Virus record (IMG/VR): IMGVR_UViG_3300021387_000285
Direction: 5' to 3' (one strand)
Length of the DNA stretch: 64,000 nt
Source of the DNA: a virus
Lineage: Duplodnaviria; Heunggongvirae; Uroviricota; Caudoviricetes
Below the pieces are notes generated by a model, which saw only the letters and a program-made list of their open reading frames with translations, did not search any database and was not told the DNA's origin. The translations under genes and the position numbers were made by a program. Within the stretch, counting starts at the first letter, position 1, and each line of letters opens with the position of its first letter. Positions 11,231-60,473 of this stretch are shown here, one piece after another.

Positions 11231-11983
11231 ATGCCAGTACATGATGCATTAGGTACACGAATGAAAGAGTACGAATCTAGGAATCAGTATTATCTTCAAA
11301 AACGTACTCCAGTAGCAATACGTATTGATGGTCGCGCATTTCATTCATTTACTAAAGAACTTAACAGACCATTTGATAATGTTTTTCAAACATCTATGAT
11401 TCAAACAATGGAAACACTTTGCGGGGAAGTTCAGAATTGTATTTTTGGGTATACGCAATCTGATGAAATTACTTTAATTTTAAAAGATTATAATCAATTA
11501 AATACTTCGGCATGGTTTGATTATAGGACAGATAAATTATGTAGTATTTCTGCTAGTTTAGCAACATATTATTTTAATAAATATTTTAAAGAAAATGCAG
11601 AAAAAGTTATTTGGGCCAATCCAAATAATAGTTATTCATCAACTCTTGCTAAATGCTTGAATAAACCTGCTATTTTTGATGCCCGTTGTTTTAATATTCC
11701 AAAAGAAGAAGTAGTTAATCTTATCTATTGGAGACAGTTAGATGCGGTCCGCAATTCAATTCTCTCATGCGGTCAAGCAGAATTTTCTCACAAAGAGCTT
11801 ATGAATAAATCTTGTAAAGAGATTAAAACAATGCTTGAAGATATCGGCAAATCTTGGGATAAAATTCCTATCCACAAGCAGCGTGGAACCGCATGTACAA
11901 GAGTTGAAGGAACTTGGATTACTGATTATGCGATGCCTATTCTTCTTAAAGAAGATAGAGCTTATTTGGAAGAATTGATTTAA
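11231..11983 (+). CDS. Thg1-like protein (tRNA-His guanylyltransferase family, 3'-5' polymerase). TAG-free.
   Basis: IRIDGRAFHSF, GYTQSDEITLIL and YWRQLDAV match Thg1 motifs VRLDGRNFHRF, AYGQSDEYSFVF and SWRQADCH. Confidence 0.8.
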   Translation: MPVHDALGTRMKEYESRNQYYLQKRTPVAIRIDGRAFHSFTKELNRPFDNVFQTSMIQTMETLCGEVQNCIFGYTQSDEITLILKDYNQLNTSAWFDYRTDKLCSISASLATYYFNKYFKENAEKVIWANPNNSYSSTLAKCLNKPAIFDARCFNIPKEEVVNLIYWRQLDAVRNSILSCGQAEFSHKELMNKSCKEIKTMLEDIGKSWDKIPIHKQRGTACTRVEGTWITDYAMPILLKEDRAYLEELI

Positions 11984-12438: not shown

Positions 12439-12775
12439 TCTTTTAATTGAAGATATAGCATGGACTTTAAGAAATTTTACTGCTAAAATCATAGATTGGG
12501 AAGAAACATCTTTTTGGGAACGTGACTATAATGAAGACCCCTATAAACAAGCTGCTCATGCTATGCTAATTACTACTAAAATTGGTTATGGTGATTGTTA
12601 TCCTATTGATACTTTTATTGAAAATGTAAAAACAGGTAATTTTATTGACTATGATGGAAGTGGTTTTTGGGTTGACTCTGAAGGTAATAAAATTAATCCA
12701 ATTATATGTGATGCAAACTGGTTAAAACAAAATAAACCAGAAAATGCTAGATTTATAATGTGGTATAACAAATGA
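12425..12775 (+). CDS. Hypothetical protein.
   Basis: ORF from the track. Confidence 0.4.
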   Translation: MKINDLLIEDIAWTLRNFTAKIIDWEETSFWERDYNEDPYKQAAHAMLITTKIGYGDCYPIDTFIENVKTGNFIDYDGSGFWVDSEGNKINPIICDANWLKQNKPENARFIMWYNK

Positions 12776-13005
12776 TTTTATGTAATAAAAAATGTATCCC
12801 TTGCTGTGATTATTGTATATATGTTATTCATGATGAATGGGACGAATATGTGGATTATTGGGTAAATCCTAAACATGTAGTAGGTGGTCCCATTTGGTGT
12901 AAATTACATCAAGATAAAAAACATCAAGAAATTGCTAAAAGTTGTGGTAGTTGTGATGATTTTCATTGTTGTAATGCAAAAGAAGAAAGTTGGTATATTG
13001 TATGA
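12772..13005 (+). CDS. Cys-rich putative zinc-binding small protein.
   Basis: Multiple CxxC pairs. Confidence 0.4.
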   Translation: MILCNKKCIPCCDYCIYVIHDEWDEYVDYWVNPKHVVGGPIWCKLHQDKKHQEIAKSCGSCDDFHCCNAKEESWYIV

Positions 13006-13196
13006 CAGAGTTAGATGGTTTTATAAGTAGAATAAATCTTAATGGAAAAACTTATGGTTTAAAATGTGAAGTCGTTGAAGCGCGACCTATTACTTGTAAA
13101 AAGTGTGGGGCTTCTTTTTAGCTTCATTATGGAGAAGGACGATGTGAACATTGTGGTACATATTATACTACACACTTTTATATTGAGGAAAAATAA
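13002..13196 (+). CDS. Zinc-ribbon small protein with 1 in-frame TAG.
   Basis: CKKCG...CEHCG. ATGA and TAATG overlaps with its neighbours. Confidence 0.4.
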
Positions 13197-13399
13197 TGGA
13201 TGTTCCAAATTTAGATAATTTGATTAAAGCTATTAGTTGTGATACTTGGGCTTCTAATAAATGCAAAGAATGTCCTTATAATTATCAGCATTGGGATGAC
13301 AGTGGAGATTATGGTTTTTGGTGTTGTGATGAAGAAAAAAAATGGAATGATGCTTTATTTTATTTAAAACTTTATCAACATTTGATTAATTGGAAATAA
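13196..13399 (+). CDS. Hypothetical small protein.
   Basis: ORF from the track. Confidence 0.4.
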   Translation: MDVPNLDNLIKAISCDTWASNKCKECPYNYQHWDDSGDYGFWCCDEEKKWNDALFYLKLYQHLINWK

Positions 13400-13436
13400 T
13401 AATGAATAAAAAATATAGTTGGAGTAGTAATATAAT

Positions 13437-14243
13437 ATGAGTAAATTTTATGGAAATTATTCAGGTCGCTTTGGTGACCACTTTAAAGAATGCAAAGAAT
13501 ATTTTAAAGAATCAGAAATTGTAATGCTTGCTCTTACTGGAAGCCAAAACTATGGGCTTGATACAAAAGATAGCGATATAGATACTAAGCTTACTGTTCT
13601 TCCTTGTAAAGAAGATATTTTCTTTAATAAGCCAGCAGTATCAACAACTCATATTAGGGATAATGAAGAGCATATTGACTTTAAAGATATCCGTTTAATG
13701 CTGCCTACATTGCTTAAGCAGAATGTTAATTATCTTGAGCAACTTTTCTCTACTCAGTATCTTATTAATGAAGATTATAGTCATGAGATAGAATCTCTTC
13801 TTGATATCAGAGAAGATATTGCAAGATTCTATCCACATAAGTGTATTATGACAATGTATGGAATTGCAATGGGAAAAAAGAATAGAATCTTTAGAGAACT
13901 TCCAGAAAAGAAAGATATCTTTACATATGGATATAATCCAAAAGAAGCAATGCAGCTTTTCCGTATTGAAGAGTTTTTGCACCGATATATAAATGAAGAA
14001 CCATTTGAAGATTGTCTAAAATCTCAGCAAAGGGAACATTTATTGCTGGTTAAAAGTGGCGTTTATGATTCTCATGAAATGGTAGATATGGTAAATGCGG
14101 CAATCGCGCACGTTGAAGAAATGAAAGAAGATTATTTTGCGACTCATGAAGAAACATATAAACCTGGGGTACAGATTGTAATTTATGATGTTCAAAAAAG
14201 AATTATGGAGAAATATTTAAAAAATGTCTTTAATAATAGATGA
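13437..14243 (+). CDS. Minimal nucleotidyltransferase (Pol-beta superfamily) domain protein.
   Basis: ALTGSQNYGLDTKDSDIDT matches the GSxxxGxxxxxSDxD NTase signature. Confidence 0.6.
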   Translation: MSKFYGNYSGRFGDHFKECKEYFKESEIVMLALTGSQNYGLDTKDSDIDTKLTVLPCKEDIFFNKPAVSTTHIRDNEEHIDFKDIRLMLPTLLKQNVNYLEQLFSTQYLINEDYSHEIESLLDIREDIARFYPHKCIMTMYGIAMGKKNRIFRELPEKKDIFTYGYNPKEAMQLFRIEEFLHRYINEEPFEDCLKSQQREHLLLVKSGVYDSHEMVDMVNAAIAHVEEMKEDYFATHEETYKPGVQIVIYDVQKRIMEKYLKNVFNNR

Positions 14244-14523
14244 ATATTTTCAGAATAAAATAGATAATAAAATAGATTTTACAGAAGAAGATTTTTGGGA
14301 TTTCATAGATGAATATTCTATTGAAACTGAATATGGAGATTTACGCAGATGGTATCGTTCCGCCACTACAATCTGTGAATTTAATGGAAAATATTATGCT
14401 TGTGAATGGGATCAAGGATTAACAGAAAGACAAGAGAATCAATGGTATGGAGATCAACCATATGAAGTAATTCCTAAAGATATCGTCATAACTAAAACAG
14501 AAAGGATTTGGGAACGTGCATGA
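14224..14523 (+). CDS. Hypothetical protein.
   Basis: ORF from the track. Confidence 0.4.
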   Translation: MSLIIDEYFQNKIDNKIDFTEEDFWDFIDEYSIETEYGDLRRWYRSATTICEFNGKYYACEWDQGLTERQENQWYGDQPYEVIPKDIVITKTERIWERA

Positions 14524-14894
14524 AAATTATTATAGCAGGTGGGAGAGATTTTAATAATCGTGCCATAATGTTTCCAATTCTTTTAAAGTATATCAATAGC
14601 TCAAAAGATATTATTATAAGCGGAGATGCGCAAGGCGCTGACACACTTGGAGCAGAATGGGCAGAAACGTTTGGAATAGAAGTTTGGCATTTTCCAGCTA
14701 AATGGGAGAAATATGGTAAGTCAGCAGGATTTATTCGCAATACTGAAATGGCTGACTGCGCGGATGCTCTTATTGCCTTTTGGGATGGGAAAAGCAAAGG
14801 CACAGCCCATATGATTAAAACAATGAAATCCAAATGGAAAAAGTATTGGGTCTTTAATTATTCAGGAGAACTGATAGAAGAAGGGAGCTTATAA
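14520..14894 (+). CDS. SLOG/DUF2493-like Rossmann-fold protein.
   Basis: KIIIAGGRDF...GDAQGADTLGAEWA...WDGKSKGT. ATGA overlap with the upstream gene. Confidence 0.45.
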   Translation: MKIIIAGGRDFNNRAIMFPILLKYINSSKDIIISGDAQGADTLGAEWAETFGIEVWHFPAKWEKYGKSAGFIRNTEMADCADALIAFWDGKSKGTAHMIKTMKSKWKKYWVFNYSGELIEEGSL

Positions 14895-14899
14895 AAAAA

Positions 14900-15712
14900 A
14901 TGAAGTTCTTTATTACAGGGGACTGTCATGGTGAATTTGCACGCTTTAATGCCCCTCCAAAAGATGAAGAGTTAGGAGTAATTATTCTTGGCGATGCAGG
15001 ATTTAATTTTTATCTTAATAAAACAGATGAAAGAAAAAAGGAAGAACTTTGTACCAACCATCCTAATATGACTATATATTGCGTGCGCGGCAACCATGAA
15101 GCAAGACCTCAAGATATTGATACTATGACTACAGTATTTGATGCAACAGTTCATGGAGTAGTTTACATGGAGCCACAGTATCCTAATATCCATTATTTTC
15201 TTGATTATGGATTTTATGATATTGGTGGATATAATTGTCTTGTAATAGGCGGCGCATATTCTGTTGATAAAAAATGGCGACTGATAAGAAATGGAATGAC
15301 AGAAGAAACTAACAATCCTAAAAAAACAGGATGGTTTGCTAATGAACAACTTACTAAAGAAGAAATGGAAGATTGTTATGAACTAGTAAAAAACTTTAAC
15401 AAACCTGTAGATTTTGTCTTTACTCATACTTGTCCAACAAAATTTCAACCTACAGATATGTTCCTTCATGGAATAGACCAATCTCAAGTAGACAACTCTA
15501 TGGAAGAGTTTCTAGAAGATGTAAGTTATCAAATGGGTTGGAATATTTGGTGTTTTGGGCATTATCATGCCGACCGCATTGAACGCCCGCACGTTGAACA
15601 ATATTATAGAGATATAGAAGAGCTAGATGAAGTATATAACAGATGGAAAAATTATGATAAAACACATGAGCTTCCTTGGCATCTTGTGAAAGGACCAATG
15701 TTTGATGCATGA
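14900..15712 (+). CDS. Calcineurin-like metallophosphoesterase.
   Basis: GDCHG, GDAG and GNHE motifs. Confidence 0.7.
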   Translation: MKFFITGDCHGEFARFNAPPKDEELGVIILGDAGFNFYLNKTDERKKEELCTNHPNMTIYCVRGNHEARPQDIDTMTTVFDATVHGVVYMEPQYPNIHYFLDYGFYDIGGYNCLVIGGAYSVDKKWRLIRNGMTEETNNPKKTGWFANEQLTKEEMEDCYELVKNFNKPVDFVFTHTCPTKFQPTDMFLHGIDQSQVDNSMEEFLEDVSYQMGWNIWCFGHYHADRIERPHVEQYYRDIEELDEVYNRWKNYDKTHELPWHLVKGPMFDA

Positions 15713-15891
15713 TATTATTTCTTAAAATTATTGCACCAATTTGTTTAATTATTGCTACTATTCTCTTTTGGAAATTTGAACATAAAATCTTACATTCAAA
15801 AGAACAACATTTTACGATATTTCTTTTTATTGTTCTTGAATGCTGTATCATATTACTTTGGATGTGTTATTTAGCCTGGTTATTTCCATAA
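15709..15891 (+). CDS. Small membrane protein.
   Basis: Two hydrophobic segments. Confidence 0.35.
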   Translation: MILFLKIIAPICLIIATILFWKFEHKILHSKEQHFTIFLFIVLECCIILLWMCYLAWLFP

Positions 15892-15910
15892 TCAGGCTAT
15901 TTTCGGTTTA

Positions 15911-15939
15911 TTGATTTTTTTATAAAAATATAGTATAAT
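15911..15939 (+). promoter_or_regulatory. Sigma-A-type promoter within a ~60-bp conserved block.
   Basis: CGGTTTATTGATTTTTTTATAAAAATATAGTATAATATATATAGAAAAAT. Confidence 0.6.
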
Positions 15940-15969
15940 ATATATAGAAAAATAAAGGAGAAGCTAACT

Positions 15970-16350
15970 ATGAATATTGAAAAATTACGGTCGCTTTCTC
16001 GTAAAAAATACCAACGAGCTATGAATCAACTTGTACGCAAAATTAACAAATCCCTTAAAGATGATTGGCTTTGGGATGGAAGATTTACACTCAAACAGCA
16101 ATCTGCCTATTTTTGGTCCTATGAAGATCATAGTGGTGGGCATTTTCTTGTTTGGTTAACTTTTGTTGATAATAAAACTAGCGCAGAAGAATATATGGAT
16201 TTTGATAATTATGGCACAGAATATAATATAATGCGTTGGATAAATACTTGCATTACTGAATACTTTGATGTTTGGAAAGAAAATCCTAATCCATATAAAC
16301 AGGCAGAAATGGAGGGGAGGTATCCTGTGCCTCCTGAATCTATACTATAA
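15970..16350 (+). CDS. Hypothetical protein.
   Basis: ORF from the track preceded by an AAAGGAG RBS. Confidence 0.45.
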   Translation: MNIEKLRSLSRKKYQRAMNQLVRKINKSLKDDWLWDGRFTLKQQSAYFWSYEDHSGGHFLVWLTFVDNKTSAEEYMDFDNYGTEYNIMRWINTCITEYFDVWKENPNPYKQAEMEGRYPVPPESIL

Positions 16351-16964
16351 TGATTTTTTCAATTCTTATTCCAATTACTATTATTGGAGCAGGTCTGATT
16401 ATAACCTTAATAGACCAAAAAGTTGCATATTTAAATAGCATAAGAGAAAGATATAATTTAGAACTTAAAACTATTTGGTGCCCTTATCAATCTTTTGCTG
16501 ATGCTACCGAGGCTAAAGCTTATCAACAAAAAGTTATAGAAATGCCACAACTTACTTTTGATAGATGGTTAACTTTTTATAATAATAAACCAGAATGTTG
16601 GGTTATTCAAAAAGATCAATGGAAAAGTTTTGCTGATATTCCCTATTATGTTAAAATAAATGAACATGAAGATAGAAAAGGCAGAATAAAAAGAACTTTC
16701 TCTTTTGTCCCTACCTATTGGATAAGTCCAGAAGAAAAACAGAAATATAGAGAGTGGGTAGAGACTCAATATGAGTATGGCAAAGCGCAAATTTATGAAA
16801 ATGCGCGAAATGCCAAGCTCAAAGAACTCGCGGGATATATTGAAGAAGATATTAACGAACGTCGCAAAGTATTTGAAAAGGAGCTTGAAAAAGCAAAATC
16901 AGATATGACTTTGCAATTAAGTGATGGGACAAAAGTAGTAATACCGCAACCTACTAAAAAATAG
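16350..16964 (+). CDS. Hypothetical protein with an N-terminal TM helix.
   Basis: ORF from the track. Confidence 0.45.
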   Translation: MIFSILIPITIIGAGLIITLIDQKVAYLNSIRERYNLELKTIWCPYQSFADATEAKAYQQKVIEMPQLTFDRWLTFYNNKPECWVIQKDQWKSFADIPYYVKINEHEDRKGRIKRTFSFVPTYWISPEEKQKYREWVETQYEYGKAQIYENARNAKLKELAGYIEEDINERRKVFEKELEKAKSDMTLQLSDGTKVVIPQPTKK

Positions 16965-16974
16965 GAGTAAAATT

Positions 16975-17313
16975 ATGTATTCAATTTATGTTGATGATGA
17001 GAGAACCCCAAAGGGAAAGTTTGACATTGTTTGCCGCACAACTAATGATGCAGTAAAAGCAGTAAGACGTAAATATAAAGAGGGCGTGCGTAACTTTTAT
17101 TTAGACTTAGACCATGATGCTGGATTAGATAGTCTTACTAATGAGCATGGTGGAGATTTTATAAATGTTCTAAAACAGATAGATGCCTATGTTAATATGG
17201 GCAGAATGCGCGACCTTGATATCACAGTAAATTATCATACTGGCAATCCAGTAGGAAGAGAGAATATGCATAACTTTGTTATTAATTCTGGGTATATGCA
17301 CGAATTGGTCTAA
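16975..17313 (+). CDS. Hypothetical protein.
   Basis: ORF from the track. Confidence 0.4.
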   Translation: MYSIYVDDERTPKGKFDIVCRTTNDAVKAVRRKYKEGVRNFYLDLDHDAGLDSLTNEHGGDFINVLKQIDAYVNMGRMRDLDITVNYHTGNPVGRENMHNFVINSGYMHELV

Positions 17314-17344
17314 TAGGTTGGTAAAATTAAATCGTATATATCTA

Positions 17345-17373
17345 TTGAAAAATAAAAAAAATTATGCTATAAT
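17345..17373 (+). promoter_or_regulatory. Sigma-A-type promoter.
   Basis: TTGAAA-N17-TGcTATAAT followed by ATATATAGAAAAT. Confidence 0.55.
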
Positions 17374-17704
17374 ATATATAGAAAATTTGAGAAAGAAATA
17401 TTCAAATGGAATTGTATGATATTGATTTTATTGGTTTAATTTAGATATATGGTTCTTCAAAAGAAGAAGCATTGATTAAGTTTAAAAGATGGATTGCAAC
17501 TGCTCCAGGCATTTTATAGCTTGACGATTATGATAATGAAGATGACTAATTTAGAATTTTTAAAATATCTTAGAGAAAATAAAATAGTAGATTTTGAAGA
17601 TAATTTTAATTCTAATGAAGAAAGTAATGTTCTTTCTGTATGGGATTGGGATGGATGGCATGAAATGTTAATTTGGTTTGATAGTGAAGGGAACATTATA
17701 GAAA

Positions 17705-18277
17705 ATGATTGAAGGATTGTATGAGCCTTTCAGAACTGAATGGTCGGCAGAAGGAACCGTATGGTTATATAGTGATCCTCATTTTGATGAAGATGAAGAT
17801 CTGAGAATTGCTTTCCCTCATCGTCCTACTGCAGAAGAGCAGGTTAAAATGATCAACAGTAATGTTGGCAAAAAAGATCATCTTATTCTTCTTGGAGATA
17901 TTGGAAGTATTGAATGGGCACGTAAGCTAAGAGGACATAAGATTCTTATAGCAGGAAACCATGATATTGGTTTAAGCGCATATAAGGATATTTTTGAATA
18001 TGTATATGGTGGCCCACTTATGATTTCTGAAAAGATAATTTTATCGCATGAACCTTTAGGAATTGATTGGGCCTTCAACATTCATGGGCATACGCACATG
18101 CAGAAAGAAGATAAAAAAGGTTGTTTATGTGTATGTTCTGATGTTATAGGATATACTCCAATTAACTTTAATCAATTTATTAAGTCTGGTAGACTTACAG
18201 AAATAACTCCATTGCATCGTATAACCATTGATAAAGCCACATTAAGAAAACAAAAGAGAGGAGCATGGCGCAAATGA
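17705..18277 (+). CDS. Calcineurin-like metallophosphoesterase.
   Basis: GD..., GNHD and GHTH motifs. Confidence 0.65.
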   Translation: MIEGLYEPFRTEWSAEGTVWLYSDPHFDEDEDLRIAFPHRPTAEEQVKMINSNVGKKDHLILLGDIGSIEWARKLRGHKILIAGNHDIGLSAYKDIFEYVYGGPLMISEKIILSHEPLGIDWAFNIHGHTHMQKEDKKGCLCVCSDVIGYTPINFNQFIKSGRLTEITPLHRITIDKATLRKQKRGAWRK

Positions 18278-18522
18278 GAACTGCATATGCACTTTTTGAA
18301 GCAGAATCAAATGAAATTATTTGTGTTTCTGAATTAAGAACTAATGTTGAAGAATATTTATGCGATATATTTATGGATGATTTTTATGTAGAAGCTATCT
18401 ATAATTATTACCATAATGATACGTTAACTCCTGCTGAAATCGCTAAACAGGCATGGGATTATTGTATAAAATATTATGGTGATGAATCACTTATTTATAT
18501 TGTAGAAACAGAACTAATTTAA
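18265..18522 (+). CDS. Hypothetical protein.
   Basis: ORF from the track. Confidence 0.4.
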   Translation: MAQMRTAYALFEAESNEIICVSELRTNVEEYLCDIFMDDFYVEAIYNYYHNDTLTPAEIAKQAWDYCIKYYGDESLIYIVETELI

Positions 18523-18535
18523 GGAGTTTTTAGTT

Positions 18536-18748
18536 ATGATATTTTATAAAGTAAAACTTTGTAATGTTGAACATGAGAATTATTTTGTAGATTATGAAAA
18601 TGCTGCAAATTTTTTACTTAATTCGTATTTTGATGATACAAATGATGTGACTGATGAAGATGGAGCTATGGATATAAATAATGAAGTTGCTGATACTGGA
18701 GCAATTGAAGGCTATGGCTGCATTGAAGAATGCTGGTTTGATGATTAA
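18536..18748 (+). CDS. Hypothetical acidic small protein.
   Basis: ORF from the track. Confidence 0.35.
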   Translation: MIFYKVKLCNVEHENYFVDYENAANFLLNSYFDDTNDVTDEDGAMDINNEVADTGAIEGYGCIEECWFDD

Positions 18749-18757
18749 ATCGGCTTA

Positions 18758-18786
18758 TTGATTTTTTATAAAAAATATAATATAAT
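18758..18786 (+). promoter_or_regulatory. Sigma-A-type promoter within a ~60-bp conserved block.
   Basis: CGGCTTATTGATTTTTTATAAAAAATATAATATAATATATATAGAAAAAT. Confidence 0.6.
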
Positions 18787-18822
18787 ATATATAGAAAAAT
18801 AAAGAAAGAGAGTGTTTTTATT

Positions 18823-19023
18823 ATGACTGTATATGAAAAGATTGACCGAGCATTACGTCAACATGAGCAGCATAAATATTATGAACGCTCTCTTGATTCT
18901 ATTGCTGATTATATTGATTGGGCTTGGAAATGGCGTAAAATAACACCAAAAGAAAAAGATGAAGTATGTAACAGAGTTTGCGCTTTATATGAAGAAAAAT
19001 TAGCACTTATTAGAAAGAGTTGA
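18823..19023 (+). CDS. Hypothetical small protein.
   Basis: ORF from the track. Confidence 0.4.
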   Translation: MTVYEKIDRALRQHEQHKYYERSLDSIADYIDWAWKWRKITPKEKDEVCNRVCALYEEKLALIRKS

Positions 19024-19586
19024 TGTATATGAAAAAGTTTATATTACCAAAGCTTCATATTGATATTGAACGATGGAAATATTGTATGGCATTGGATATT
19101 TATGTCTCTAATCTTGGAAGATTTAAAGATACTCAAGGGCATCTTTTAACTGTATGCAAAAAAGATGGATACCTTTATTGTAAAGGAAAACTTGCTCATC
19201 GTTTAGTTCTTCAAACATGGAAACCAGTCCCTAATTATGCTAATCTTACAGTTGACCATAAAAATCATAATACTTGGGATAATCGTTTAAAAAATCTTGA
19301 ATGGGTAACGCTTGAAGAAAATAGAAAACGCGATGAAATAGATAAAAAAAATAATGCACCAATTAGTACAACTATCAACTCTACTATGAACGTAGATACT
19401 ATGGTTATGTTAAATACTACTCTTATGCCTATTGGTAATGCTAAAGAGATTCTTAAAAATGATAAGACAATTTCTGGAAATGCTAATATTCAACGAGCAT
19501 TTGAAAAAGCAATGAATACACCAAACAAACCAATTAAGTTTGGTGGATATTCTATTACTTGTATTAAAAAGGATAATGATAAATGA
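19020..19586 (+). CDS. HNH homing endonuclease.
   Basis: ..HRLV..VDHKNHNTWDNRLKNLEWVTLEENRKR matches the HNH_3/NUMOD-type motif. Confidence 0.75.
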   Translation: MMYMKKFILPKLHIDIERWKYCMALDIYVSNLGRFKDTQGHLLTVCKKDGYLYCKGKLAHRLVLQTWKPVPNYANLTVDHKNHNTWDNRLKNLEWVTLEENRKRDEIDKKNNAPISTTINSTMNVDTMVMLNTTLMPIGNAKEILKNDKTISGNANIQRAFEKAMNTPNKPIKFGGYSITCIKKDNDK

Positions 19587-19957
19587 ATAATCCAACTGAA
19601 GAAGGTATTTATACAACAATATTTAAAGATGGAACTATTATCCATTATAATTATTGGATGATGTTTGATGATGGCAAGGGAAAATGGTATTGGAATAGCA
19701 CAGTTAGTGGTGGAGTAATACATTGGTTTAAGCCAGAAGAAAACTATGAAATGCATACTTATTATAGATTGCCAGATTGGGAATTGCGCGAACTAATTGA
19801 GCAAGCAAAACGAGCAGAAGCATATGAGACGTATGCGGATGATATAGATAAAATATTGCAGGCTTTTCTTATAGAGCAAGGTTTTAGCACATATGAAGAT
19901 ATGGCTAATTATGAAATGAATGCGGGATATTATAAAGGCTATGAAATAAAGGAGTGA
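19583..19957 (+). CDS. Hypothetical protein.
   Basis: ORF from the track. Confidence 0.4.
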   Translation: MNNPTEEGIYTTIFKDGTIIHYNYWMMFDDGKGKWYWNSTVSGGVIHWFKPEENYEMHTYYRLPDWELRELIEQAKRAEAYETYADDIDKILQAFLIEQGFSTYEDMANYEMNAGYYKGYEIKE

Positions 19958-19963
19958 TATAAA

Positions 19964-21199
19964 ATGCTTAATAAAAATCAAGAACGAGAACTGGCATATG
20001 TTGTAGTTATAGATGAAATACGAGAGATTCCTGGCTATGATAGAGTAGAGCATGCGCGAACCGGTGGTTGGTGGTGTATTGTTCCTAAAGGACAGTTTCA
20101 TGTAGGAGATGCAGCAATCTATTTTGAAATTGATAGTAAAGTTCCTTCAACCAACCCAGCATTCGCTTTCCTTGAAAAACGTAATTATAAAATAAAAACT
20201 CAGAAGATGTGTAAGGTACTCAGCCAGGGACTTATTATGCACGCAGAAGATTTTGGATGGAAAGCGTATCAAGCTGGAGAAACTGGTTATAATGAACCAG
20301 CTTGTATTATGGATGATAATAATGCTTGTCATTATGTAGATACAGAATCCCGTTTCCTTACTAAAATTCTCGGTGTAACTTATGCGGATGAAGAAGATAA
20401 TAATCGTAAAGCTAATTCTGTAGACAAATATAAAAAGATGGCACAGCGACATCCTGCAATTTTTCGCAAACCTTTTGTGCGTTGGCTTATGAAGCGCACT
20501 TGGGGTAAGAAACTTATGTTCTTGTTTTTTGGAAAGAAAAAAGATAAGAAGAATAGCTGGCCAGAATGGGTTACTAAAACTGATGAAGAGCGCATTCAAA
20601 ACATGCCTTGGATTCTTGAAGATAATGGAGAATGGGTCGTCACTGAAAAGATAGATGGCAGCTCTACTACCTTTACGATGAAACGTGGAAAACATAATAA
20701 ATATGAGTTCTATGTATGCTCCCGTAATGTATGTTTTGACAGTGTAGATAAACGCTGCTATTATGATACTAACATTTATTGGGAAATGGCTGAAAAATAT
20801 GATATGTATAATATGTTGCTTGCTTTTCTGCTTGGACGGCCAGATGTTGAGTGGGTAACTATACAAGGAGAAACTTTCGGCGCAGGTGTGCAAAAACGTG
20901 ATTACTCTCTTGAAGGCCATGATTTCAGAGCATTTAATCTTATTACTTCTGATAGAGGTCGTTGGGGAACTCTTGAAATGAAAGAACTCCTTGAAAAGCA
21001 TTATAATATTCCCTGCGTGCCTGTTGTTCTTCCTAACTTTAAATTTGAAGGACTTGATGTAGATAAACTCCTTACTTTTGCAGAAGGAAACTCTATGATT
21101 GATGATAAGCCTCGTGAAGGTTTTGTTTTCCGTTCTAAAGATGGACAGCGTTCTTTTAAAGCAGTAAGTAATGCTTTTCTACTTAAATATCATATGTAA
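19964..21199 (+). CDS. ATP-dependent RNA ligase-like nucleotidyltransferase (Rnl family) with an N-terminal extra domain.
   Basis: KIDGSS (motif I, KxDGxx), EGFVFR (motif IV) and ..FLLKY (motif V). Confidence 0.55.
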   Translation: MLNKNQERELAYVVVIDEIREIPGYDRVEHARTGGWWCIVPKGQFHVGDAAIYFEIDSKVPSTNPAFAFLEKRNYKIKTQKMCKVLSQGLIMHAEDFGWKAYQAGETGYNEPACIMDDNNACHYVDTESRFLTKILGVTYADEEDNNRKANSVDKYKKMAQRHPAIFRKPFVRWLMKRTWGKKLMFLFFGKKKDKKNSWPEWVTKTDEERIQNMPWILEDNGEWVVTEKIDGSSTTFTMKRGKHNKYEFYVCSRNVCFDSVDKRCYYDTNIYWEMAEKYDMYNMLLAFLLGRPDVEWVTIQGETFGAGVQKRDYSLEGHDFRAFNLITSDRGRWGTLEMKELLEKHYNIPCVPVVLPNFKFEGLDVDKLLTFAEGNSMIDDKPREGFVFRSKDGQRSFKAVSNAFLLKYHM

Positions 21200-21212
21200 A
21201 GGAATAATATAA

Positions 21213-22103
21213 ATGAAAAATAAAATTATTACTACAAGTATTGTTTGTACTATTGTAATTATAGCTCTTTTAATTGTCGGATTGAGTTGTACGACTTCTG
21301 TTCCTGCTGGATTTACAGGAGTCCCTGTGACTTTTGGTAAAGTTGCTGATTATACTCTAGATAGTGGTTTCCATATAAAGGGACCTTTTACTTCTGTTAT
21401 TAAAATGGATAATCGTATTCAAAAACATACTATCCAAATGAATGCCTTTTCAAAAGATATTCAAGAGACTTCAGTAACATATACTATTAACTATCAAATT
21501 AGTAAAAATGATGCAATGACTATTTATCGTACTATTGGTAAAAATTATTTTGATACAGTAATTGCGCCTAATGTCAGTGAAGCAGTTAAAACAGCAACTG
21601 CGCATTATACAGCAGAAGGTCTTATTAATAGTCGTGATAAACTTGCTAGCGATATTGAAGAAATATTAGTTCAACTTTTAGAGAAATATAATATTGTAAT
21701 TGTTGGCACTTCTATTGAAGACCTTGACTTTACTGATGCTTTTACAAATGCGGTTGAAGCAAAGCAGGTAGCACAGCAAGATAAATTGCGCGCTGAAACA
21801 ATTCAGGCTCAGCAAACTATGGAAGAACAAGCAAAAGCAGAGCGTGCGATTATTGTTGCCGAAGCTGAAGCAAAACAGGCGATTATTGCGGCTAATGCAG
21901 ACCTTGAAGTTGTACAGATTCAAGCAGAAGCGAGCCTTTATGCAGGTGAGCGTGAGGCGCAAATGAACCAGCGTATTGCAGAAGCGCTAACTCCAGACCT
22001 TATTAAATATTATTGGATTAAACAGTGGAATGGAGAACTGCCATCAACTATGCTTAATGATAGCACAGGAATTATGTTAACTCTTGGAGAAAATATAGAA
22101 TAA
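21213..22103 (+). CDS. SPFH/band-7 (prohibitin-HflC-like) membrane protein.
   Basis: N-terminal TM helix, SPFH core, then a coiled-coil Ala/Glu/Gln-rich tail. Confidence 0.7.
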   Translation: MKNKIITTSIVCTIVIIALLIVGLSCTTSVPAGFTGVPVTFGKVADYTLDSGFHIKGPFTSVIKMDNRIQKHTIQMNAFSKDIQETSVTYTINYQISKNDAMTIYRTIGKNYFDTVIAPNVSEAVKTATAHYTAEGLINSRDKLASDIEEILVQLLEKYNIVIVGTSIEDLDFTDAFTNAVEAKQVAQQDKLRAETIQAQQTMEEQAKAERAIIVAEAEAKQAIIAANADLEVVQIQAEASLYAGEREAQMNQRIAEALTPDLIKYYWIKQWNGELPSTMLNDSTGIMLTLGENIE

Positions 22104-22104
22104 T

Positions 22105-22141
22105 AAAAAAAAAGACACAATAATTGTGTCTTTTTTTTTAT
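22105..22141 (+). terminator. Rho-independent terminator.
   Basis: AGACACAA..TTGTGTCT stem flanked by A and T runs. Confidence 0.7.
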
Positions 22142-22169
22142 TGACTTTTATATAAGGATATGGTATAAT
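22141..22169 (+). promoter_or_regulatory. Sigma-A-type promoter, TTGACT-N17-TGgTATAAT.
   Basis: Sits directly upstream of the GT2 gene. Confidence 0.6.
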
Positions 22170-22194
22170 AAAAATAAAAAAGGGGTGAAAATAA

Positions 22195-23235
22195 TTGAAT
22201 ATAAATCCATAGATAGATGTTATTATGCCATGTTATTATCAAAACAATGTAATAAAATTAGGAATTGAAAAACTTATTGCACAAACATATAAAGACAATT
22301 TAACTTTAATTATGATAAATGATTGTTCCCCTAATACCCAATGTGAATATCAAGATTTAATCAATACTTACAAAGAACAAATACATATTGAATATATTAA
22401 AACTTCTAATAATATAGGTCCTGGCTGCGTAAGACAATTAGGAATTGATAAATCTCAACATTCTTTTTTATTATTTCAAGATGACGATGATGAATTATTT
22501 GATACCAATAGTATTGAATTATTAGTATCTCAATTAAATAATAAAGATATAACAACAATTGCTTCAGTGTCAGGAGATATACAACTAATTTCATAGTATT
22601 ATTATAGTAAGTTATGGAAAAGTAATGGACTACAAGTTCAAGGAACTTTATTTAATAAAAAAATATTAAAAGATTTAAATATCCATTTTGAACCAGATTT
22701 ATCATATAAAGAAGAAGATACAGCATTTTCTGAATTATTTTGTTATAAAACTAAAAACTATGAACATCTTATAATAAATAAGCCAGTATATATTAGACGA
22801 TATTTTGATACTCATACACATATCTCTTCTATTAATTCAATTAAAGAAAACTTTATTTCAATGTTAATATTAAATGGTTATAGAATAAATTATTTTTTAC
22901 ACTATGCAACAAAAAATGATAGTATTAATGAATCATTATTTATTATAATTCCTACTTTATTAAACAACTTATTAACATATATTATATCTAATAATTTAAC
23001 AATTACTAAAAAAGAATATCAAAAAATTAATTTTACATTAGAACAATATATACAATTATATACAAAATATAAAAATAATAATTTTAATATAGTAGAATAT
23101 ATAAATAAAAACCCATTTCTTAATAACTTTTTTAATGAACAAAGTATATATGGAACAATTAATATACAAAACATTGAAGAACCTTTAGAAATATTAAAAA
23201 ACAAATTATTAATTTTTCAATCAAAAATTGAATAA
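22195..23235 (+). CDS. Family-2 (GT-A) glycosyltransferase with 2 in-frame TAG and extremely AT-rich composition.
   Basis: TTG start with an AAAAAGGGGTG RBS. DVIMPCYYQNN (GT2 N-terminal motif), INDCSPNT and a DDDDE DxD motif. Joins track ORFs 22225-22596 and 22861-23235. Confidence 0.65.
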
Positions 23236-23247
23236 AAGAACGGTTTA

Positions 23248-23276
23248 TTGATTTTTTTATAAAATTATGATATAAT
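23248..23276 (+). promoter_or_regulatory. Sigma-A-type promoter within a ~60-bp conserved block.
   Basis: CGGTTTATTGATTTTTTTATAAAATTATGATATAATATATATAGAAAAAT. Confidence 0.6.
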
Positions 23277-23288
23277 ATATATAGAAAA

Positions 23289-23504
23289 ATGAAAAGGATG
23301 GAATCAAAAATGTATTATGGTTATCGTATGACAGAAGATGGTTGGACTAGAATGAAAACCTTTGATACTATCCAAGAGTACAAAGAATATGTGGAGAAGC
23401 GAAAAGTCGTTTGGGGGCTTTGTTCTAGCGAGCCTGTTGATTTGCGAGGAGAAGCTGCTTCAGAAAAATACATGGCTCGTATGTATAAAACAGATGCAAA
23501 ATGA
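23289..23504 (+). CDS. Hypothetical small protein.
   Basis: ORF from the track. Confidence 0.4.
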   Translation: MKRMESKMYYGYRMTEDGWTRMKTFDTIQEYKEYVEKRKVVWGLCSSEPVDLRGEAASEKYMARMYKTDAK

Positions 23505-23665
23505 TTCAAATACAAGTTATTCCAGTACAAAATCAAGGGCACGCTAATGAAATATTACGTGCCTATTCTCAAAATTATCCTAAACGAAAAATTATTGGAG
23601 TATCAATGATTCCTGTTGATTTTCCAGGAGGCTGGTTTATGACAGTTACTTACGAGATTATTTAA
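23501..23665 (+). CDS. Hypothetical 54-aa protein.
   Basis: ATGA overlap with the upstream gene. It ends in TAA. Confidence 0.3.
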   Translation: MIQIQVIPVQNQGHANEILRAYSQNYPKRKIIGVSMIPVDFPGGWFMTVTYEII

Positions 23666-23679
23666 GGAAGTGATAAAAT

Positions 23680-24432
23680 ATGAGTGTTTACTGTGCTAGT
23701 GATTGGCATGGATGTTATTGGGTTTGGGAAAAAGTAAAAGAAATTCTTAAACCCGATGATAAATTATATTTTTTAGGAGACGCCGCAGATAGAGGACCAG
23801 ATGGATGGAAACTTATCAAAGAACTCCTTACAGACCCTAGAGTTATCTACATTAAGGGCAACCATGAAGATTTAATGATTGAAGCTATTGGGAAGTTTAA
23901 TCCAGAAGAAGAAGATAGTTTATGGAATGCGGACACCACCCTCTGGCATTATAATGGCGGCGACCCTACTTATGATGCTTTTCTTTTGGATGAAGATAAT
24001 TTTGGAAAAGCAAAGATTTTAAAACAAATAAAAGATTTGCCTTTTTGCGCCAATTATATCAATAAAAATAATCAACAAGTATTTCTTTGTCATGCAGGAT
24101 GTGATGGTGTAGACATTGATACTTTAGATGAATATCATGCAATATGGGATAGGGAACATTGGAGATTTCCTGATGAATGGTCTGGAGAAGATAATCAAAT
24201 AATAGTTCATGGACATACTCCTATTGACCTTATGATTGAGGAACAGGAAAATATAGCAAGATGGCATAAAGATAAATTTCAAGTAACAATACCTAAATGG
24301 ACTCCTGGTACATCTTATTGGTATGCGCAGGGGCACAAAGTCTGTATTGATATTGGTACGGTTTGGGAAAATGTAGCAATTCTTTTGAATCTTGATACTT
24401 TTGAAGATATTATATTGATGAAGAGGTATTAA
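23680..24432 (+). CDS. Ser/Thr protein phosphatase (lambda-PPase-like metallophosphoesterase).
   Basis: DWHG, GDAADRG and GNHE motifs. Confidence 0.7.
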   Translation: MSVYCASDWHGCYWVWEKVKEILKPDDKLYFLGDAADRGPDGWKLIKELLTDPRVIYIKGNHEDLMIEAIGKFNPEEEDSLWNADTTLWHYNGGDPTYDAFLLDEDNFGKAKILKQIKDLPFCANYINKNNQQVFLCHAGCDGVDIDTLDEYHAIWDREHWRFPDEWSGEDNQIIVHGHTPIDLMIEEQENIARWHKDKFQVTIPKWTPGTSYWYAQGHKVCIDIGTVWENVAILLNLDTFEDIILMKRY

Positions 24433-24433
24433 T

Positions 24434-24694
24434 ATGAAAAACTATGAATTACATAATTTTTATTGTATGAATTGTGGGCGTGAAGCTATTCCTATTCAGA
24501 GACAAATAAGTCATAAACATAGCAAACATCATCGTAAAGTTCTTTATTGTCCTTGGTGCAAACAAACTGTTAATCATATTGAATGTAGAACTAGTGAAGA
24601 AGTTTTAGAGTTTAAAGAAAATTTTGAAAAGGGGTTGTATAAAGATGAGTGCAAAGACTCTTTGGATTATGGTAGGATGTCCTGGCGCGGGTAA
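24434..24694 (+). CDS. Zinc-ribbon small protein.
   Basis: CMNCG...CPWCK. Confidence 0.4.
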   Translation: MKNYELHNFYCMNCGREAIPIQRQISHKHSKHHRKVLYCPWCKQTVNHIECRTSEEVLEFKENFEKGLYKDECKDSLDYGRMSWRG

Positions 24695-25139
24695 AAGTTA
24701 CTTCGCAAAAAATCATCTTATAAGAAATAATTTATGGAAATATGTCTCTCGTGATGAAATTAGATTTGCACTTTTAAACAGCGGAGATGAATATTTTAGT
24801 AAAGAGCGACAGGTTTTTAAAGAATTCTGTGAAAAAATTAGCATTAATCTATTAGATAATATTCATACAGATGTAATTGCTGATGCAACTCATTTAAATG
24901 AAAAAAGTCGTAATAAATTATTATATAACTTAAAAAATTATGGAATTGACTTTACTAAAATAGATGTAATTCCAGTTTATGTAAAGGCTTCTTTTGCCAC
25001 TATCCAACAGAGAAATAGCGAAAGAGAAGGACGTGCGCGAGTTCCTTATCATAACCTATGTGATATGTATGATGCTCTACAGCACCCTAATGAAGATAAT
25101 TTTAAATATACCGCAATATTGGAGGTTGATAATTCATGA
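24645..25139 (+). CDS. Polynucleotide 5'-kinase (T4 Pnk kinase-domain-like P-loop kinase).
   Basis: WIMVGCPGAGKSYFAKN...RDEIRF closely parallels T4 Pnk LTIGCPGSGKSTWA...RDDYRQ. Confidence 0.65.
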   Translation: MSAKTLWIMVGCPGAGKSYFAKNHLIRNNLWKYVSRDEIRFALLNSGDEYFSKERQVFKEFCEKISINLLDNIHTDVIADATHLNEKSRNKLLYNLKNYGIDFTKIDVIPVYVKASFATIQQRNSEREGRARVPYHNLCDMYDALQHPNEDNFKYTAILEVDNS

Positions 25140-25693
25140 TTTGGCTTTGTTCTGATTTTCATTTTTGTCATGACAAAGAGTTTGTATGGAAAGCAAGAGG
25201 ATTTTCATCCATTGATGAAATGAATAATGAAATTGTTAGACGATTTAATCTTTTTGTAAAACCTAATGATATTGTCTATATTCTTGGTGATTGCATGCTT
25301 AAAGATAATACAACTGGTATTAAGTTTCTTAGCGACCTTAAAGGTATTAAATATCTTGCTTATGGAAATCATGATACCAATGAAAGATTAAGTCTATATG
25401 AAGATGCACATATCTTTGAAGATATTCAATTTGGTTATCGGTTTAAATATAATAAATGCTCTTTTTGGCTTTCTCATTATCCAATGAAAATGGGAAACTA
25501 TAAAGATAAGCATCCAACTTGGAATCTATCAGGGCATACTCATTCAACTGAAAGTATTGATGGGGATGATTCTATCTATAATGTAGCGATGGATGCACAT
25601 AACTGCTTTCCTATTTCTATTGAGCAAATTATGGCAGAAATTAAAGTTTATAGAGATGAGCATCCTGTTCAGCCATTTAACAAAATAAAATAA
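25136..25693 (+). CDS. Metallophosphoesterase, candidate 2',3'/3'-phosphatase partner of the kinase (bacterial-Pnkp-like arrangement).
   Basis: DFHFCHD, GD and GNHD motifs. ATGA overlap with the kinase gene. Confidence 0.6.
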   Translation: MIWLCSDFHFCHDKEFVWKARGFSSIDEMNNEIVRRFNLFVKPNDIVYILGDCMLKDNTTGIKFLSDLKGIKYLAYGNHDTNERLSLYEDAHIFEDIQFGYRFKYNKCSFWLSHYPMKMGNYKDKHPTWNLSGHTHSTESIDGDDSIYNVAMDAHNCFPISIEQIMAEIKVYRDEHPVQPFNKIK

Positions 25694-26050: not shown

Positions 26051-26089
26051 AGGGATGTGCTTGCGCGCATCCCTTTATTGTTATTTTTT
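26051..26089 (+). terminator. Rho-independent terminator on a GC-rich island.
   Basis: AGGGATG..CATCCCT stem followed by a T-run. Confidence 0.6.
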
Positions 26090-26715: not shown

Positions 26716-26985
26716 GTGGTTATTATTCTTATATATGTATTATTAGGAATATTTATCTACGTAGTCGCTGTTCCAATAGCTGAAGGATTGGTAAATATTA
26801 TATTGCAATAGTTTGAAATAATTAAAGGCAAACAACTAGTGCATATAACAAAAATCCAAAAAGAAGTTACTGATTTAAGCGGTGAAGAAGAAGAATTACC
26901 GCAAACTAAAGTTATTGGCTTTGCTTTACCAGATGATGAAGAAGAAATCTATGAAGAAGAGGAAGACGACGATTATGGTGATTGA
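26716..26985 (+). CDS. Small membrane protein with an acidic C-terminal tail; 1 in-frame TAG.
   Basis: TM helix VIILIYVLLGIFIYVVAV then a poly-Glu/Asp tail. GTG start is uncertain. Confidence 0.35.
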
Positions 26986-28228
26986 CTATAAGTTTTATGA
27001 TACTTGTTCTTTATTATTAAAAGCAGGTACCTTATTTGATAATAACGAACCCTTTGCTATTTCATCAATTACATTAAATGAATTAGAAGATATAAAAACT
27101 TCTCCATATAAAGATGCTGAACAAAAGTATGCGGCCCGCAAATTGCTTCATACATTAAAAGAGCATAGAGGAGAATATGATGTCCATATCTTTATAGAAG
27201 ATATGCTACAACCTATTATTGATAAACATTTAACTATAACCAATGATACAAAAATCTTGGCGACTGCAATTAATTATGATAATACTGTTCATCCAGATGA
27301 AACAATATTTGTTACTGACGATAATAGTTTGTTTGAAATTGCTAATTTATTTTTTGGTGAAGATTCTATAGAAAGTGTTGGCGAAGAAGAAATAGACCAT
27401 TATTAGGGGTATTTAGATTTAACACTTAATGAATCTGAAATGGAATAGTTTTATTAGAATTGGCAATAGAATATTTATAATTTATTGCCTAATTAGTATT
27501 TAGTAATTAGAAGTTAGCAAAATGAAATAGTAGATAGATTATGCTATACTGGCACAGAATATCGTCCTATTAGTTTTGAAAGTTTTGATTCTAAACATTT
27601 TGGAGTTATTAAACCAATAGATGTTTAGTAGTAGTTTGTCGCAGATAGCTTAACTCATAACCAATTAACTATGATAAAAGGTCCTGCAGGCTCTGGTAAA
27701 ACATTGCTCGCATTTGGATTTTTGTTCCAGTAGTTAGAAAGACATAAAATAGATAAAATAATTATTTTCTGTAATACTGTTGCTGCAAAGAACGCGGCAA
27801 GGCTTGGTTATTTACCAGGAAGCAGAGAAGAAAAATTGCTAGACTCATAGATTGGTAATGTTTTAATTAGTAAACTAGGTAGCCGTTTAGAAGTTGAAAG
27901 GTTACTTGATGAAGAAAAATTAATTTTATTACCAATGAGTGATATTCGTGGTTATGATACAACAGGCTTGCGCGCAGGTATTTATTTTTCAGAAGCATAG
28001 AATCTTGATATTTCTTTAATGAAATTAGGATTATAGCGCATTGGAGAAGATAGTATTTGCATTATTGATGGTGATGAAAAAACATAGGTAGATGATATTA
28101 GTTTCGCTGGTGCTAATAATGGTATGCGGCGTGCTTCAAAAGTATTTAGGGGTTCTACTATTTATGGAGAAATTGAACTGAAAGAAATACATCGTTCAAC
28201 TATTGGAAAAATTGCAGAAAAAATGTAA
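26975..28228 (+). CDS. phoH: PIN-PhoH fusion (PhoH2/YlaK-like ATPase). The PIN domain (144 codons) is TAG-free and the PhoH part carries 14 in-frame TAG.
   Basis: GPAGSGKTLLA Walker A motif. DGDEKT(TAG)VDD aligns to the invariant PhoH GDxxQxDL, so TAG stands where Gln is expected. The track ORF 26882-27406 is its N-terminal fragment. Confidence 0.75.
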
Positions 28229-60270: not shown

Positions 60271-60466
60271 TATTTTAAAAGTTGATACTAATAAGATAGA
60301 TACAGATACAACATATAAAGTAGCTACACAATTACGTAAAGTCCTTAATGAAGAAGACGTTGTTCTAGTTCTACCTTATGGTATAGATGTATTATTAGAT
60401 GTTCCAATAGAAGAAATAATTTCTATTAGAGATAATTTAAATGAAATTATCAAATCAAGGAGTTAA
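60263..60466 (+). CDS. Hypothetical small protein.
   Basis: ORF from the track. Confidence 0.35.
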   Translation: MINILKVDTNKIDTDTTYKVATQLRKVLNEEDVVLVLPYGIDVLLDVPIEEIISIRDNLNEIIKSRS

Positions 60467-60473
60467 AATAAAA

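Follow-up and report, generated by a model that had tools for sequence, protein, structure and literature searches.

A phage gene block joining a T4 Pnk-type kinase, a gp66-family phosphoesterase and an Rnl5-type ligase: a putative toolkit for RNA break repair

Introduction

RNA repair by phages is the textbook counter to host defences that cut tRNA. To our knowledge, experimental proof of such repair exists solely for T4, with Pnkp (PseT) and Rnl1 as the enzymes. In bacteria, the Pnkp/Hen1 system (Clostridium thermocellum Pnkp, CthPnkp) and the Pnkp1-Rnl-Hen1 system (Capnocytophaga Pnkp1, PDB 4xrp) likewise unite an ATP-dependent ligase with a kinase and a metallophosphoesterase, and a comparable set of parts is found on one polypeptide in phage kinase-phosphatase-ligase fusions (phrog_8238, e.g. 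Staphylococcus phage Alsa_2 CDS0079). Here, we describe a block of putative RNA-repair genes in a 64,000-nucleotide stretch of DNA from a Caudoviricetes virus (IMG/VR record IMGVR_UViG_3300021387_000285), which in its full length is called the window below. The central element of the block is a T4 Pnk-type kinase whose gene is coupled to that of a metallophosphoesterase of the AQ665/D29 gp66 family, a pairing that recurs almost without exception in related viral contigs.

Burroughs and Aravind, as cited by Iyer et al. 2021, are said to have given a computational description of phage RNA-repair arsenals in 2016. Iyer et al. themselves describe arsenals of large phages that contain an ATP-dependent RNA ligase, Pnk, phosphoesterases, RlaP, Thg1, cREC, PIN-PhoH and YAcAr, and that were proposed to serve in RNA repair (PMC7824862). 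In that survey, phosphatases of the haloacid dehalogenase (HAD) type are the usual partner, calcineurin-like enzymes occur in "a small number" of phages, and Rnl1 and Rnl2 are the main ligases (PMC7824862). The original prediction for the present stretch, made by a model from the letters of the sequence, called its arsenal unusually complete; this is a fair description, but comparable large-phage arsenals had already been described (PMC7824862). Compared to the surveyed cases, the locus and its relatives have an Rnl5 ligase and a near-obligate pair of a kinase and a gp66-type phosphoesterase, and they belong to uncultured phages with contigs of ca 120-250 kb, many of which are TAG-recoded. This pairing and its link to Rnl5 are the points of use here, while the heal-and-seal concept itself is already known.

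With T4 Pnkp/Rnl1, the locus shares a homologous kinase domain with identical catalytic residues, the presumed logic of healing both ends and then sealing them, and a probable place among the early functions of the phage. It differs in that the 164-residue kinase stands alone, with no HAD phosphatase domain, in that a binuclear metallophosphoesterase is encoded by a separate gene, and in that the ligase is of the nick-sealing Rnl5 family, whereas that of T4 is Rnl1, which seals anticodon loops. The resemblance to bacterial Pnkp lies in a lambda-like phosphatase gene that is located in the same putative operon as the kinase. However, the parts are here separate genes, the ligase is of another family, and the coupled phosphoesterase belongs to the AQ665/gp66 clade. 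No single-polypeptide protein of the CthPnkp type was found (for TIGR04075, the score is 28.6 bits and the cutoff 750), and the open reading frames (ORFs) scanned at 11.2-26.7 kb included none for a Hen1-like methyltransferase, a scan that left aside several small ORFs in this region and the genome beyond the window. Judging from the sequence, the defining architectural features tested for T4 Pnkp/Rnl1 and for bacterial Pnkp/Hen1 appear to be absent.

Results

The kinase, the phosphoesterase and a small protein encoded directly upstream of them are the following:

24434..24694, + strand: zinc-ribbon protein with a CxxC...CPxC motif (phrog_1257, 4.5e-9)
24645..25139, + strand: stand-alone T4 Pnk-type P-loop 5'-kinase, 164 residues (PF13671, 3.6e-16; phrog_505 'polynucleotide kinase', 9e-21)
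25136..25693, + strand: AQ665/D29 gp66 family metallophosphoesterase, 185 residues, ATGA-coupled to the kinase (phrog_547 'phosphoesterase', 5.6e-40)

The TGA stop codon of the kinase (25137-25139) overlaps the ATG of the next ORF (25136-25138). The ATGA junction reported in the original prediction is thus present, and so is the operon coupling of the two genes within a block free of TAG codons.

The same arrangement is found in related phages. In seven relatives obtained from protein look-ups (L007-L010 and L017-L019), the kinase gene is in all cases followed by the phosphoesterase gene, and in the four relatives compared by tblastn the kinase identity is 42-44%. An Rnl5 ligase is located 1-5 kb 5' of the kinase in six of the seven, with none seen in L018. 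When IMG/VR was searched using an alignment of the kinase, 80 loci were obtained, with kinase identities of 33-54%. The pairing was counted in the 75 loci that have at least 1.5 kb of sequence 3' of the kinase, and the neighbours in the 34 loci that have full 8-kb flanks on both sides. The phosphoesterase was found 3' of the kinase on the same strand in 74 of the 75 loci, and within 300 nucleotides in 64 of them. The ligase is 5' of the kinase in 35 of the 80 loci and 3' of it in 9, and it lies within 8 kb in 20 of the 34 full-flank loci. In these 34, the other genes observed are RlaP (16), the zinc ribbon (14), PIN-PhoH (13, downstream of the module) and the lambda-like phosphatase (11). Since 74 of 75 loci keep the pairing while the ligase and the other genes move, the kinase-phosphoesterase pair is the invariant unit, with the remaining genes in a looser, shuffled association. 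Gene-order conservation strongly backs a functional pair.

The zinc-ribbon gene is found directly 5' of the kinase in six of eight aligned loci. In the window, its ORF overlaps that of the kinase by 50 nucleotides (24645-24694) in a different frame. Because the corresponding genes of L007 and L008 do not overlap, this feature seems to be specific to the present phage.

Turning to the kinase itself, its identity is ca 30% to the kinase domain of T4 Pnk and ca 33% to T4-like pseT. Residues K17, S18, D37, R40 and R127 align to K15, S16, D35, R38 and R126 of T4 Pnk, which are essential in that enzyme. The P-loop reads G11-CPGAGKS, and K17, D37, R40 and R127 are invariant in seven sequences, while residue 18 is Ser or Thr. 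That the protein closely parallels the T4 Pnk kinase domain, as originally stated, is correct with respect to the five catalytic residues, but it overstates the overall similarity (phmmer E-values of 2e-5 to 8e-5). The best match in the PDB is Pnkp1 (6e-8), followed by PSTK and T4 Pnk (2e-5), and among cultured phages the kinase is most similar to pseT genes and to a Pnk that adjoins an Rnl1. No HAD domain (DxDxT) was matched on the kinase polypeptide, which ends after the kinase domain. Assignment as PSTK or KTI12 was also considered and discarded: with 45 bits, the match to the PSTK model stays below the cutoff of 290, and the C-terminal tRNA-binding domain is lacking.

The closest cultured-phage kinase, gp49 of Bacillus phage pW2 (L011, 5001-5990), adjoins an Rnl1 and is fused to a candidate HD-type phosphohydrolase, whose HDLGK motif was spotted by eye. 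If this HD assignment is right, Pnk-type kinases would be paired with four phosphoesterase folds, namely HAD, lambda-like, HD and gp66-type.

The coupled phosphoesterase has no Pfam match and no PDB sequence match. All motifs of a binuclear-metal metallophosphoesterase are nevertheless present, namely D7-x-H9, G51-D52, G77-N-H-D80, H114 and G133-H-T-H136. The AlphaFold2 (AF2) model has a predicted local distance difference test score (pLDDT) of 95, and its best Foldseek match is Aquifex AQ665 (1xm7; E 7e-11, template-modelling (TM) score 0.70). It is followed in the ranking by the MJ0936 and YfcE phosphodiesterases, and not by lambda phosphatase or the CthPnkp phosphatase. Mycobacteriophage D29 gp66 belongs to phrog_547 too (4e-52), and hhalign to the family profile gives 99.4% with E 5e-21. 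The original description of the coupling "as in bacterial Pnkp" does not hold for this gene, which lies outside the lambda-phosphatase/CthPnkp clade, with AQ665 as best fold match and D29 gp66 as homolog. A Pnkp-like phosphatase was rejected as a candidate identity on account of the missing PDB sequence match, the different fold neighbour and the lack of similarity to the phosphatase segment of the phage Pnkp-like fusion.

D29 gp66 is reported to be a 2',3'-cyclic nucleotide phosphodiesterase acting on free nucleotides (Dutta 2014, cited in PMC12287305), and it is the one member of the family for which this activity is reported. The gp66 gene of D29 has neither a kinase gene nor an RNA ligase gene linked to it, in contrast to the coupling with a Pnk-type kinase found here. 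The neighbours of a phrog_547 phosphoesterase in Listeria phage LP-125 include RtcB, an RNA ligase and a HAD-like protein.

Three more phosphoesterases are encoded in the block:

14900..15712, + strand: metallophosphoesterase of 270 residues, phrog_1649 family (PF00149, 3.7e-10; phrog_1649, 4.7e-23)
17705..18277, + strand: metallophosphoesterase of 190 residues, paralog of the 25136-25693 protein (phrog_547, 3.1e-25)
23680..24432, + strand: lambda-phosphatase/NinI-like metallophosphatase (1g5b, 1.2e-8; phrog_246, 4.8e-28)

All three had been named in the original prediction, and our results agree with it. The first two have complete metal-binding motifs, and the third has the motifs D8-W-H, G33-D-A-A-D-R-G and G60-N-H-E. 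The 17705 protein shares the phrog_547 family of D29 gp66 with the coupled enzyme, to which it is 32% identical (E 5e-8). For the 14900 protein (AF2 model, pLDDT 91), the best fold matches, Dbr1 and Mre11, are weak (TM 0.5-0.56) and not discriminating. Its homologs are found 5' of the ligase in L009, L010, L017 and L019, and no domain beyond the metallophosphoesterase was seen in the homologs listed. The 23680 enzyme matches the phosphatase segment of phrog_8238, and the likeness to bacterial Pnkp thus fits this gene, loosely, rather than the ATGA-coupled one. Located two genes upstream, it is the nearer counterpart of the Pnkp phosphatase.

The ligase gene is located further upstream:

19964..21199, + strand: Rnl5-type ATP-dependent RNA ligase, 411 residues (PF21189 and PF09414)

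The RNA_ligase domain (PF09414) is matched with 9.5e-23 (81.6 bits, cutoff 27), and an N-terminal oligonucleotide-binding (OB) domain (PF21189; 5e-18, 65.8 bits) covers residues 11-92 and aligns to residues 5-102 of NgrRnl. No C-terminal OB domain or C-terminal domain of the Rnl1 or Rnl2 type is present, as the protein ends 10 residues past motif V. The KIDGSS and EGFVFR motifs of the original prediction were located at residues 229-234 and 385-390, respectively. NgrRnl (PDB 5cot) is matched with E 7e-32 over both domains, and the 9 PDB matches at E<=1 are all NgrRnl chains. K229 (motif I), E303, E385 and K399 align to K170, E227, E312 and K326 of NgrRnl, the motif strings being K229-I-D-G, G302-E-T-F-G, E385-G-F-V and F398-K. 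The DraRnl model TIGR02306 gives 1.6e-32 and 112.8 bits, which is below its NCBIfam equivalog cutoff of 151.15, compared to 7.9e-5 and 22.3 bits for the Rnl2 model.

These results assign the protein to Rnl5, and not to Rnl1 or Rnl2. A placement in the DNA-ligase or mRNA-capping families, which was looked for by motif and domain analysis, did not occur. The protein is accordingly classed by family as an Rnl5 RNA ligase, with a predicted nick-sealing activity; those Rnl5 enzymes that have been characterised join nicks in duplexes, as long as the 3'-OH is carried by a ribonucleotide strand (PMC5397189). With DraRnl and NgrRnl, it shares an N-terminal OB-like domain followed by the nucleotidyltransferase domain, the absence of a C-terminal OB domain, and the motif I lysine together with the residues of motifs III, IV and V. 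Compared to NgrRnl, it is ca 70 residues longer, with a linker of ca 100 residues as opposed to ca 35 (ca 65 longer). DraRnl has a DEDDh exonuclease-like gene as its partner, whereas the present ligase is encoded by a phage and has a linkage to genes for end healing.

In two of the relatives, a gene for an RNase_T/DEDDh 3' exonuclease (L017 1533-2315, L019 1501-2310) is found directly 5' of a longer Rnl5-type ligase of 469-470 residues. This order mirrors the Deinococcus DraRnl-DR_B0095 operon, in which the partner has a DEDDh-like N-terminus (PMC5397189). At the same position in the window there is an unrelated ORF of 124 residues (19583-19957).

The remaining genes of interest in and near the block are given below:

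11231..11983, + strand: Thg1-like 3'-5' nucleotidyltransferase of the tRNA 5'-end repair type (PF04446, 1.1e-32; phrog_4717, 2.6e-78)
13437..14243, + strand: RlaP-family Pol-beta nucleotidyltransferase with a GS...DSDID motif (PF10127, 5.4e-7; phrog_388, 1.3e-17)
14520..14894, + strand: YAcAr SLOG-domain protein, peripheral (PF10686, 3.6e-13)
16975..17313, + strand: cREC domain protein (PF20274, 3.7e-12, 47.2 bits, cutoff 27)
26933..28228, + strand: PIN-PhoH protein, read with TAG as sense (PF13638 and PF02562 on the identical gene in L001-L006)

The Thg1-like assignment of the original prediction was borne out, with 113.2 bits for PF04446 against a cutoff of 29.2, and the catalytic carboxylates are present as D33 in RIDGRAF and D78-E79 in SDE. 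For RlaP, the margin is weak (30 bits for PF10127 against a gathering cutoff of 23). Characterised RlaP members add 1-2 nucleotides to damaged RNA 3' ends (PMC12776372). The cREC domain is predicted to be a cyclic-phosphate-processing, receiver-like domain and is linked to RNA ligases, while YAcAr SLOG domains are predicted to bind nucleotides or NAD derivatives (PMC7824862). RlaP, cREC, YAcAr SLOG, the zinc ribbon and PIN-PhoH are members of the block beyond those originally listed.

The window has a GC content of ca 31%, and transcription is almost all on the + strand. All ORFs named in the original prediction were found on this strand at their given positions. Many genes contain 3-14 in-frame TAG codons. 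Because the coverage by long ORFs increases from 44.6 to 56.6 kb when TAG is taken as sense, and because published gene calls on identical contigs likewise read through TAG, the phage appears to be TAG-recoded. In agreement with the TAG-free block noted originally, no in-frame TAG occurs in any of the repair-type genes at 11231-25693, while flanking genes have up to 14. The latter number is reached by the PIN-PhoH gene, directly past the block, which places a boundary in code usage between 26676 and 26933, inside a syntenic RNA-related neighbourhood.

We have also considered a link between the module and TAG recoding, for example the protection of a suppressor tRNA, and rejected it. The module is present in two relatives without any read-through gain (L009 and L010), so it is not tied to recoding, and no tRNA genes were found in the window. 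A search of the block for structured RNAs (Y RNA and similar) gave no Rfam family at gathering score. No near-identical DNA was found in cultured phages, and the phage is known solely from metagenome contigs of up to ca 196 kb.

Two further features of the window matter for the discussion below:

26051..26074, + strand: terminator-like hairpin, 10-bp stem with 6 GC pairs and a T-rich tail (consensus match only)
36978-38909: NAD-dependent DNA ligase, full-length and phage-encoded

The hairpin would end a transcription unit comprising the lambda-like phosphatase, the zinc ribbon, the kinase and the phosphoesterase. The phage has genes of its own for gyrase, DnaB and Pol III alpha as well, and the block adjoins these genes.

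Some observations concern the surroundings of the ligase and the kinase. A gene for an SPFH/Band-7 membrane protein (21213-22103; PF01145, 1e-28) starts 13 nucleotides after the ligase and has 79% identity in L007. It is followed by a bidirectional terminator-like hairpin (22101-22143, 20-bp stem), right behind which a variable cassette of 1,096 bp is inserted (22139-23234), with a promoter-like TTGACT-17-TATAAT at 22141-22169. The cassette gene encodes a family-2 glycosyltransferase (22225-23235; 26% GC, 1 in-frame TAG). The cassette is present in the window, L001 and L003, and precisely missing from the otherwise 97%-identical L002 and L004; it looks like a strain-variable moron. Two genes 5' of the ligase there is a free-standing homing-endonuclease-like gene (HNH_3 and NUMOD4, 19023-19586), homologs of which occur in several related loci, though not at a fixed position. 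A gene of the xanthine/uracil permease family (60441-61733; PF00860, 1.9e-51; no in-frame TAG) is found close to the right end of the window, within a region, ca 60-64 kb, where the GC skew changes sign. This gene could be an auxiliary gene of the phage or mark a nearby module boundary.

Discussion

The interpretation that we favour, with moderate confidence, is that the block is a phage-encoded toolkit for the repair of RNA breaks, expressed early. Early expression is proposed because the repair genes can be translated under the standard code of the host. The core of the toolkit would be the two-gene end-healing unit, with the small zinc-ribbon protein as a frequent third partner. The kinase would phosphorylate 5'-OH ends, and the coupled phosphoesterase would open 2',3'-cyclic phosphates and/or strip 3'-phosphates to give a 3'-OH. 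Ahead of sealing, RlaP and the Thg1-like enzyme would restore lost nucleotides at the 3' and 5' ends, respectively. The healed 5'-P/3'-OH ends would then be sealed by the Rnl5-type ligase, characterised members of which act where the break is a nick within paired strands. Alternative or additional processing of phosphate ends may come from the cREC protein, the lambda-like phosphatase and the two further metallophosphoesterases, and PIN-PhoH is probably an associated RNA-acting gene. What the sequences show directly is the membership in these families, the conserved catalytic residues, the translational coupling and the near-obligate adjacency of kinase and phosphoesterase. Along with all these activities, we infer that the substrate would be RNA (tRNA or rRNA) and that host immune RNases would be the source of the breaks. 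The repair of cuts made by anticodon nucleases, with which the original prediction had connected the arsenal, may be included.

There are, on the other hand, a number of points that weigh against such a toolkit. Rnl5 enzymes seal nicks in duplexes, unlike the single-stranded anticodon-loop breaks of PrrC-type nucleases. Knockout of DraRnl, the founding Rnl5, delays genome reassembly after irradiation (PMC5397189). The ligase gene is set apart from the kinase operon, with a terminator-like hairpin, the SPFH gene and the variable glycosyltransferase cassette in between. The gp66/phrog_547 family has 1,233 cultured-phage records compared to 31 for the kinase, and its contexts are mixed and often unrelated to RNA repair, as in Bacillus phage Bobb, where a ribonucleotide reductase and a DNA polymerase lie beside it. 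For related cluster-A phosphoesterases, moreover, the reported roles include that of a recombination directionality factor and that of a nuclease acting on host DNA (PMC12287305), and since the reported functions differ, membership in the gp66 family does not fix the function. No fusions of the kinase and the phosphoesterase were found among the top 120 homologs listed of either protein. The enzyme activities are predicted from families, and since the related loci all belong to a single broad group of uncultured phages, their conservation is not fully independent evidence.

Given that characterised Rnl5 enzymes act on nicks in duplexes and depend on a ribonucleotide strand at the 3'-OH side, the natural targets of the toolkit are more likely to be breaks in base-paired RNA than cuts of the PrrC type. 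A TOPRIM tRNase makes a single nick in a stem, which nick-sealing ligases can seal in vitro (PMC12445682). Rather tentatively, one can speculate that the cassette of zinc ribbon, kinase and gp66-type phosphoesterase forms, together with Rnl5 (and with RlaP and the Thg1-like enzyme), a distinct pathway that repairs nicks made by host immune nucleases in tRNA stems or rRNA helices.

Another option considered is that the ligase, the kinase and the phosphoesterases serve the replication or repair of phage DNA. The kinase and the phosphoesterase would then heal DNA nicks with 5'-OH and 3'-phosphate ends like mammalian PNKP, and Rnl5 would seal nicks with ribonucleotide 3' ends. T4 Pnk is active on DNA too, and the gyrase, DnaB and Pol III alpha genes adjoin the block. 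DraRnl needs RNA solely on the 3'-OH side of the nick (PMC5397189), and its knockout phenotype, as well as the exonuclease-ligase order in L017 and L019, would suit this role. However, with a full NAD-dependent DNA ligase of its own, the phage can dispense with the Rnl5 enzyme for ordinary DNA nick sealing. In addition, the neighbouring RlaP, Thg1-like and cREC proteins are RNA-end enzymes (PMC12776372), and 16 of the 34 full-flank relatives have RlaP no further than 8 kb from the kinase. A function in DNA repair is thus unlikely.

We also regard it as improbable that the phosphoesterases (those at 25136, 17705, 14900 and 23680, and cREC) mainly degrade immune signalling or 2',3'-cyclic nucleotides, or attack host DNA, with a kinase that acts on a small molecule. 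The kinase retains the D-x-x-R acceptor-site residues that are specific to polynucleotide 5'-kinases, and end healing accounts better for its near-obligate pairing with the phosphoesterase and for the RNA ligase and RlaP genes that are often linked to it. This is so although D29 gp66 reportedly hydrolyses free 2',3'-cyclic nucleotide monophosphates and cyclic AMP, and although gp48 of A10ZJ24, from a related cluster-A phosphoesterase group, degrades host DNA and thereby silences defence genes (PMC12287305). The cREC and YAcAr SLOG domains have also been tied to conflicts involving NAD/ADP-ribose signalling (PMC7824862), and phrog_547 members are often found without any ligase or kinase.

Finally, it is very improbable that the genes are unrelated passengers of an early region with no shared pathway. 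The homing endonuclease, SPFH and strain-variable glycosyltransferase genes do interrupt the region, and the gene order is fluid for all but the pair. However, 74 of the 75 loci keep the kinase and the phosphoesterase together although the genes around them have been rearranged, 20 of the 34 full-flank loci have the ligase no more than 8 kb away, and the same families occur together in other phage lineages such as that of Listeria phage LP-125.

Conclusion

To the general scheme of RNA healing and sealing, the locus adds nothing that is conceptually new. At least 74 related viral contigs, however, show a recurrent alternative build of it, consisting of a stand-alone Pnk-type kinase and a gp66-type metallophosphoesterase, with a loosely linked Rnl5 ligase and nucleotide-restoring enzymes. 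The locus thereby provides a concrete context for two families without an agreed role, the Rnl5 ligases and the gp66/phrog_547 phosphoesterases. The latter occur in more than 1,200 sequenced phages, and three conflicting functions are reported for them. If the tentative pathway for nicks in tRNA stems and rRNA helices were to prove true, it would be the first physiological role for phage Rnl5 ligases and for the widespread gp66-family phosphoesterases of phages.

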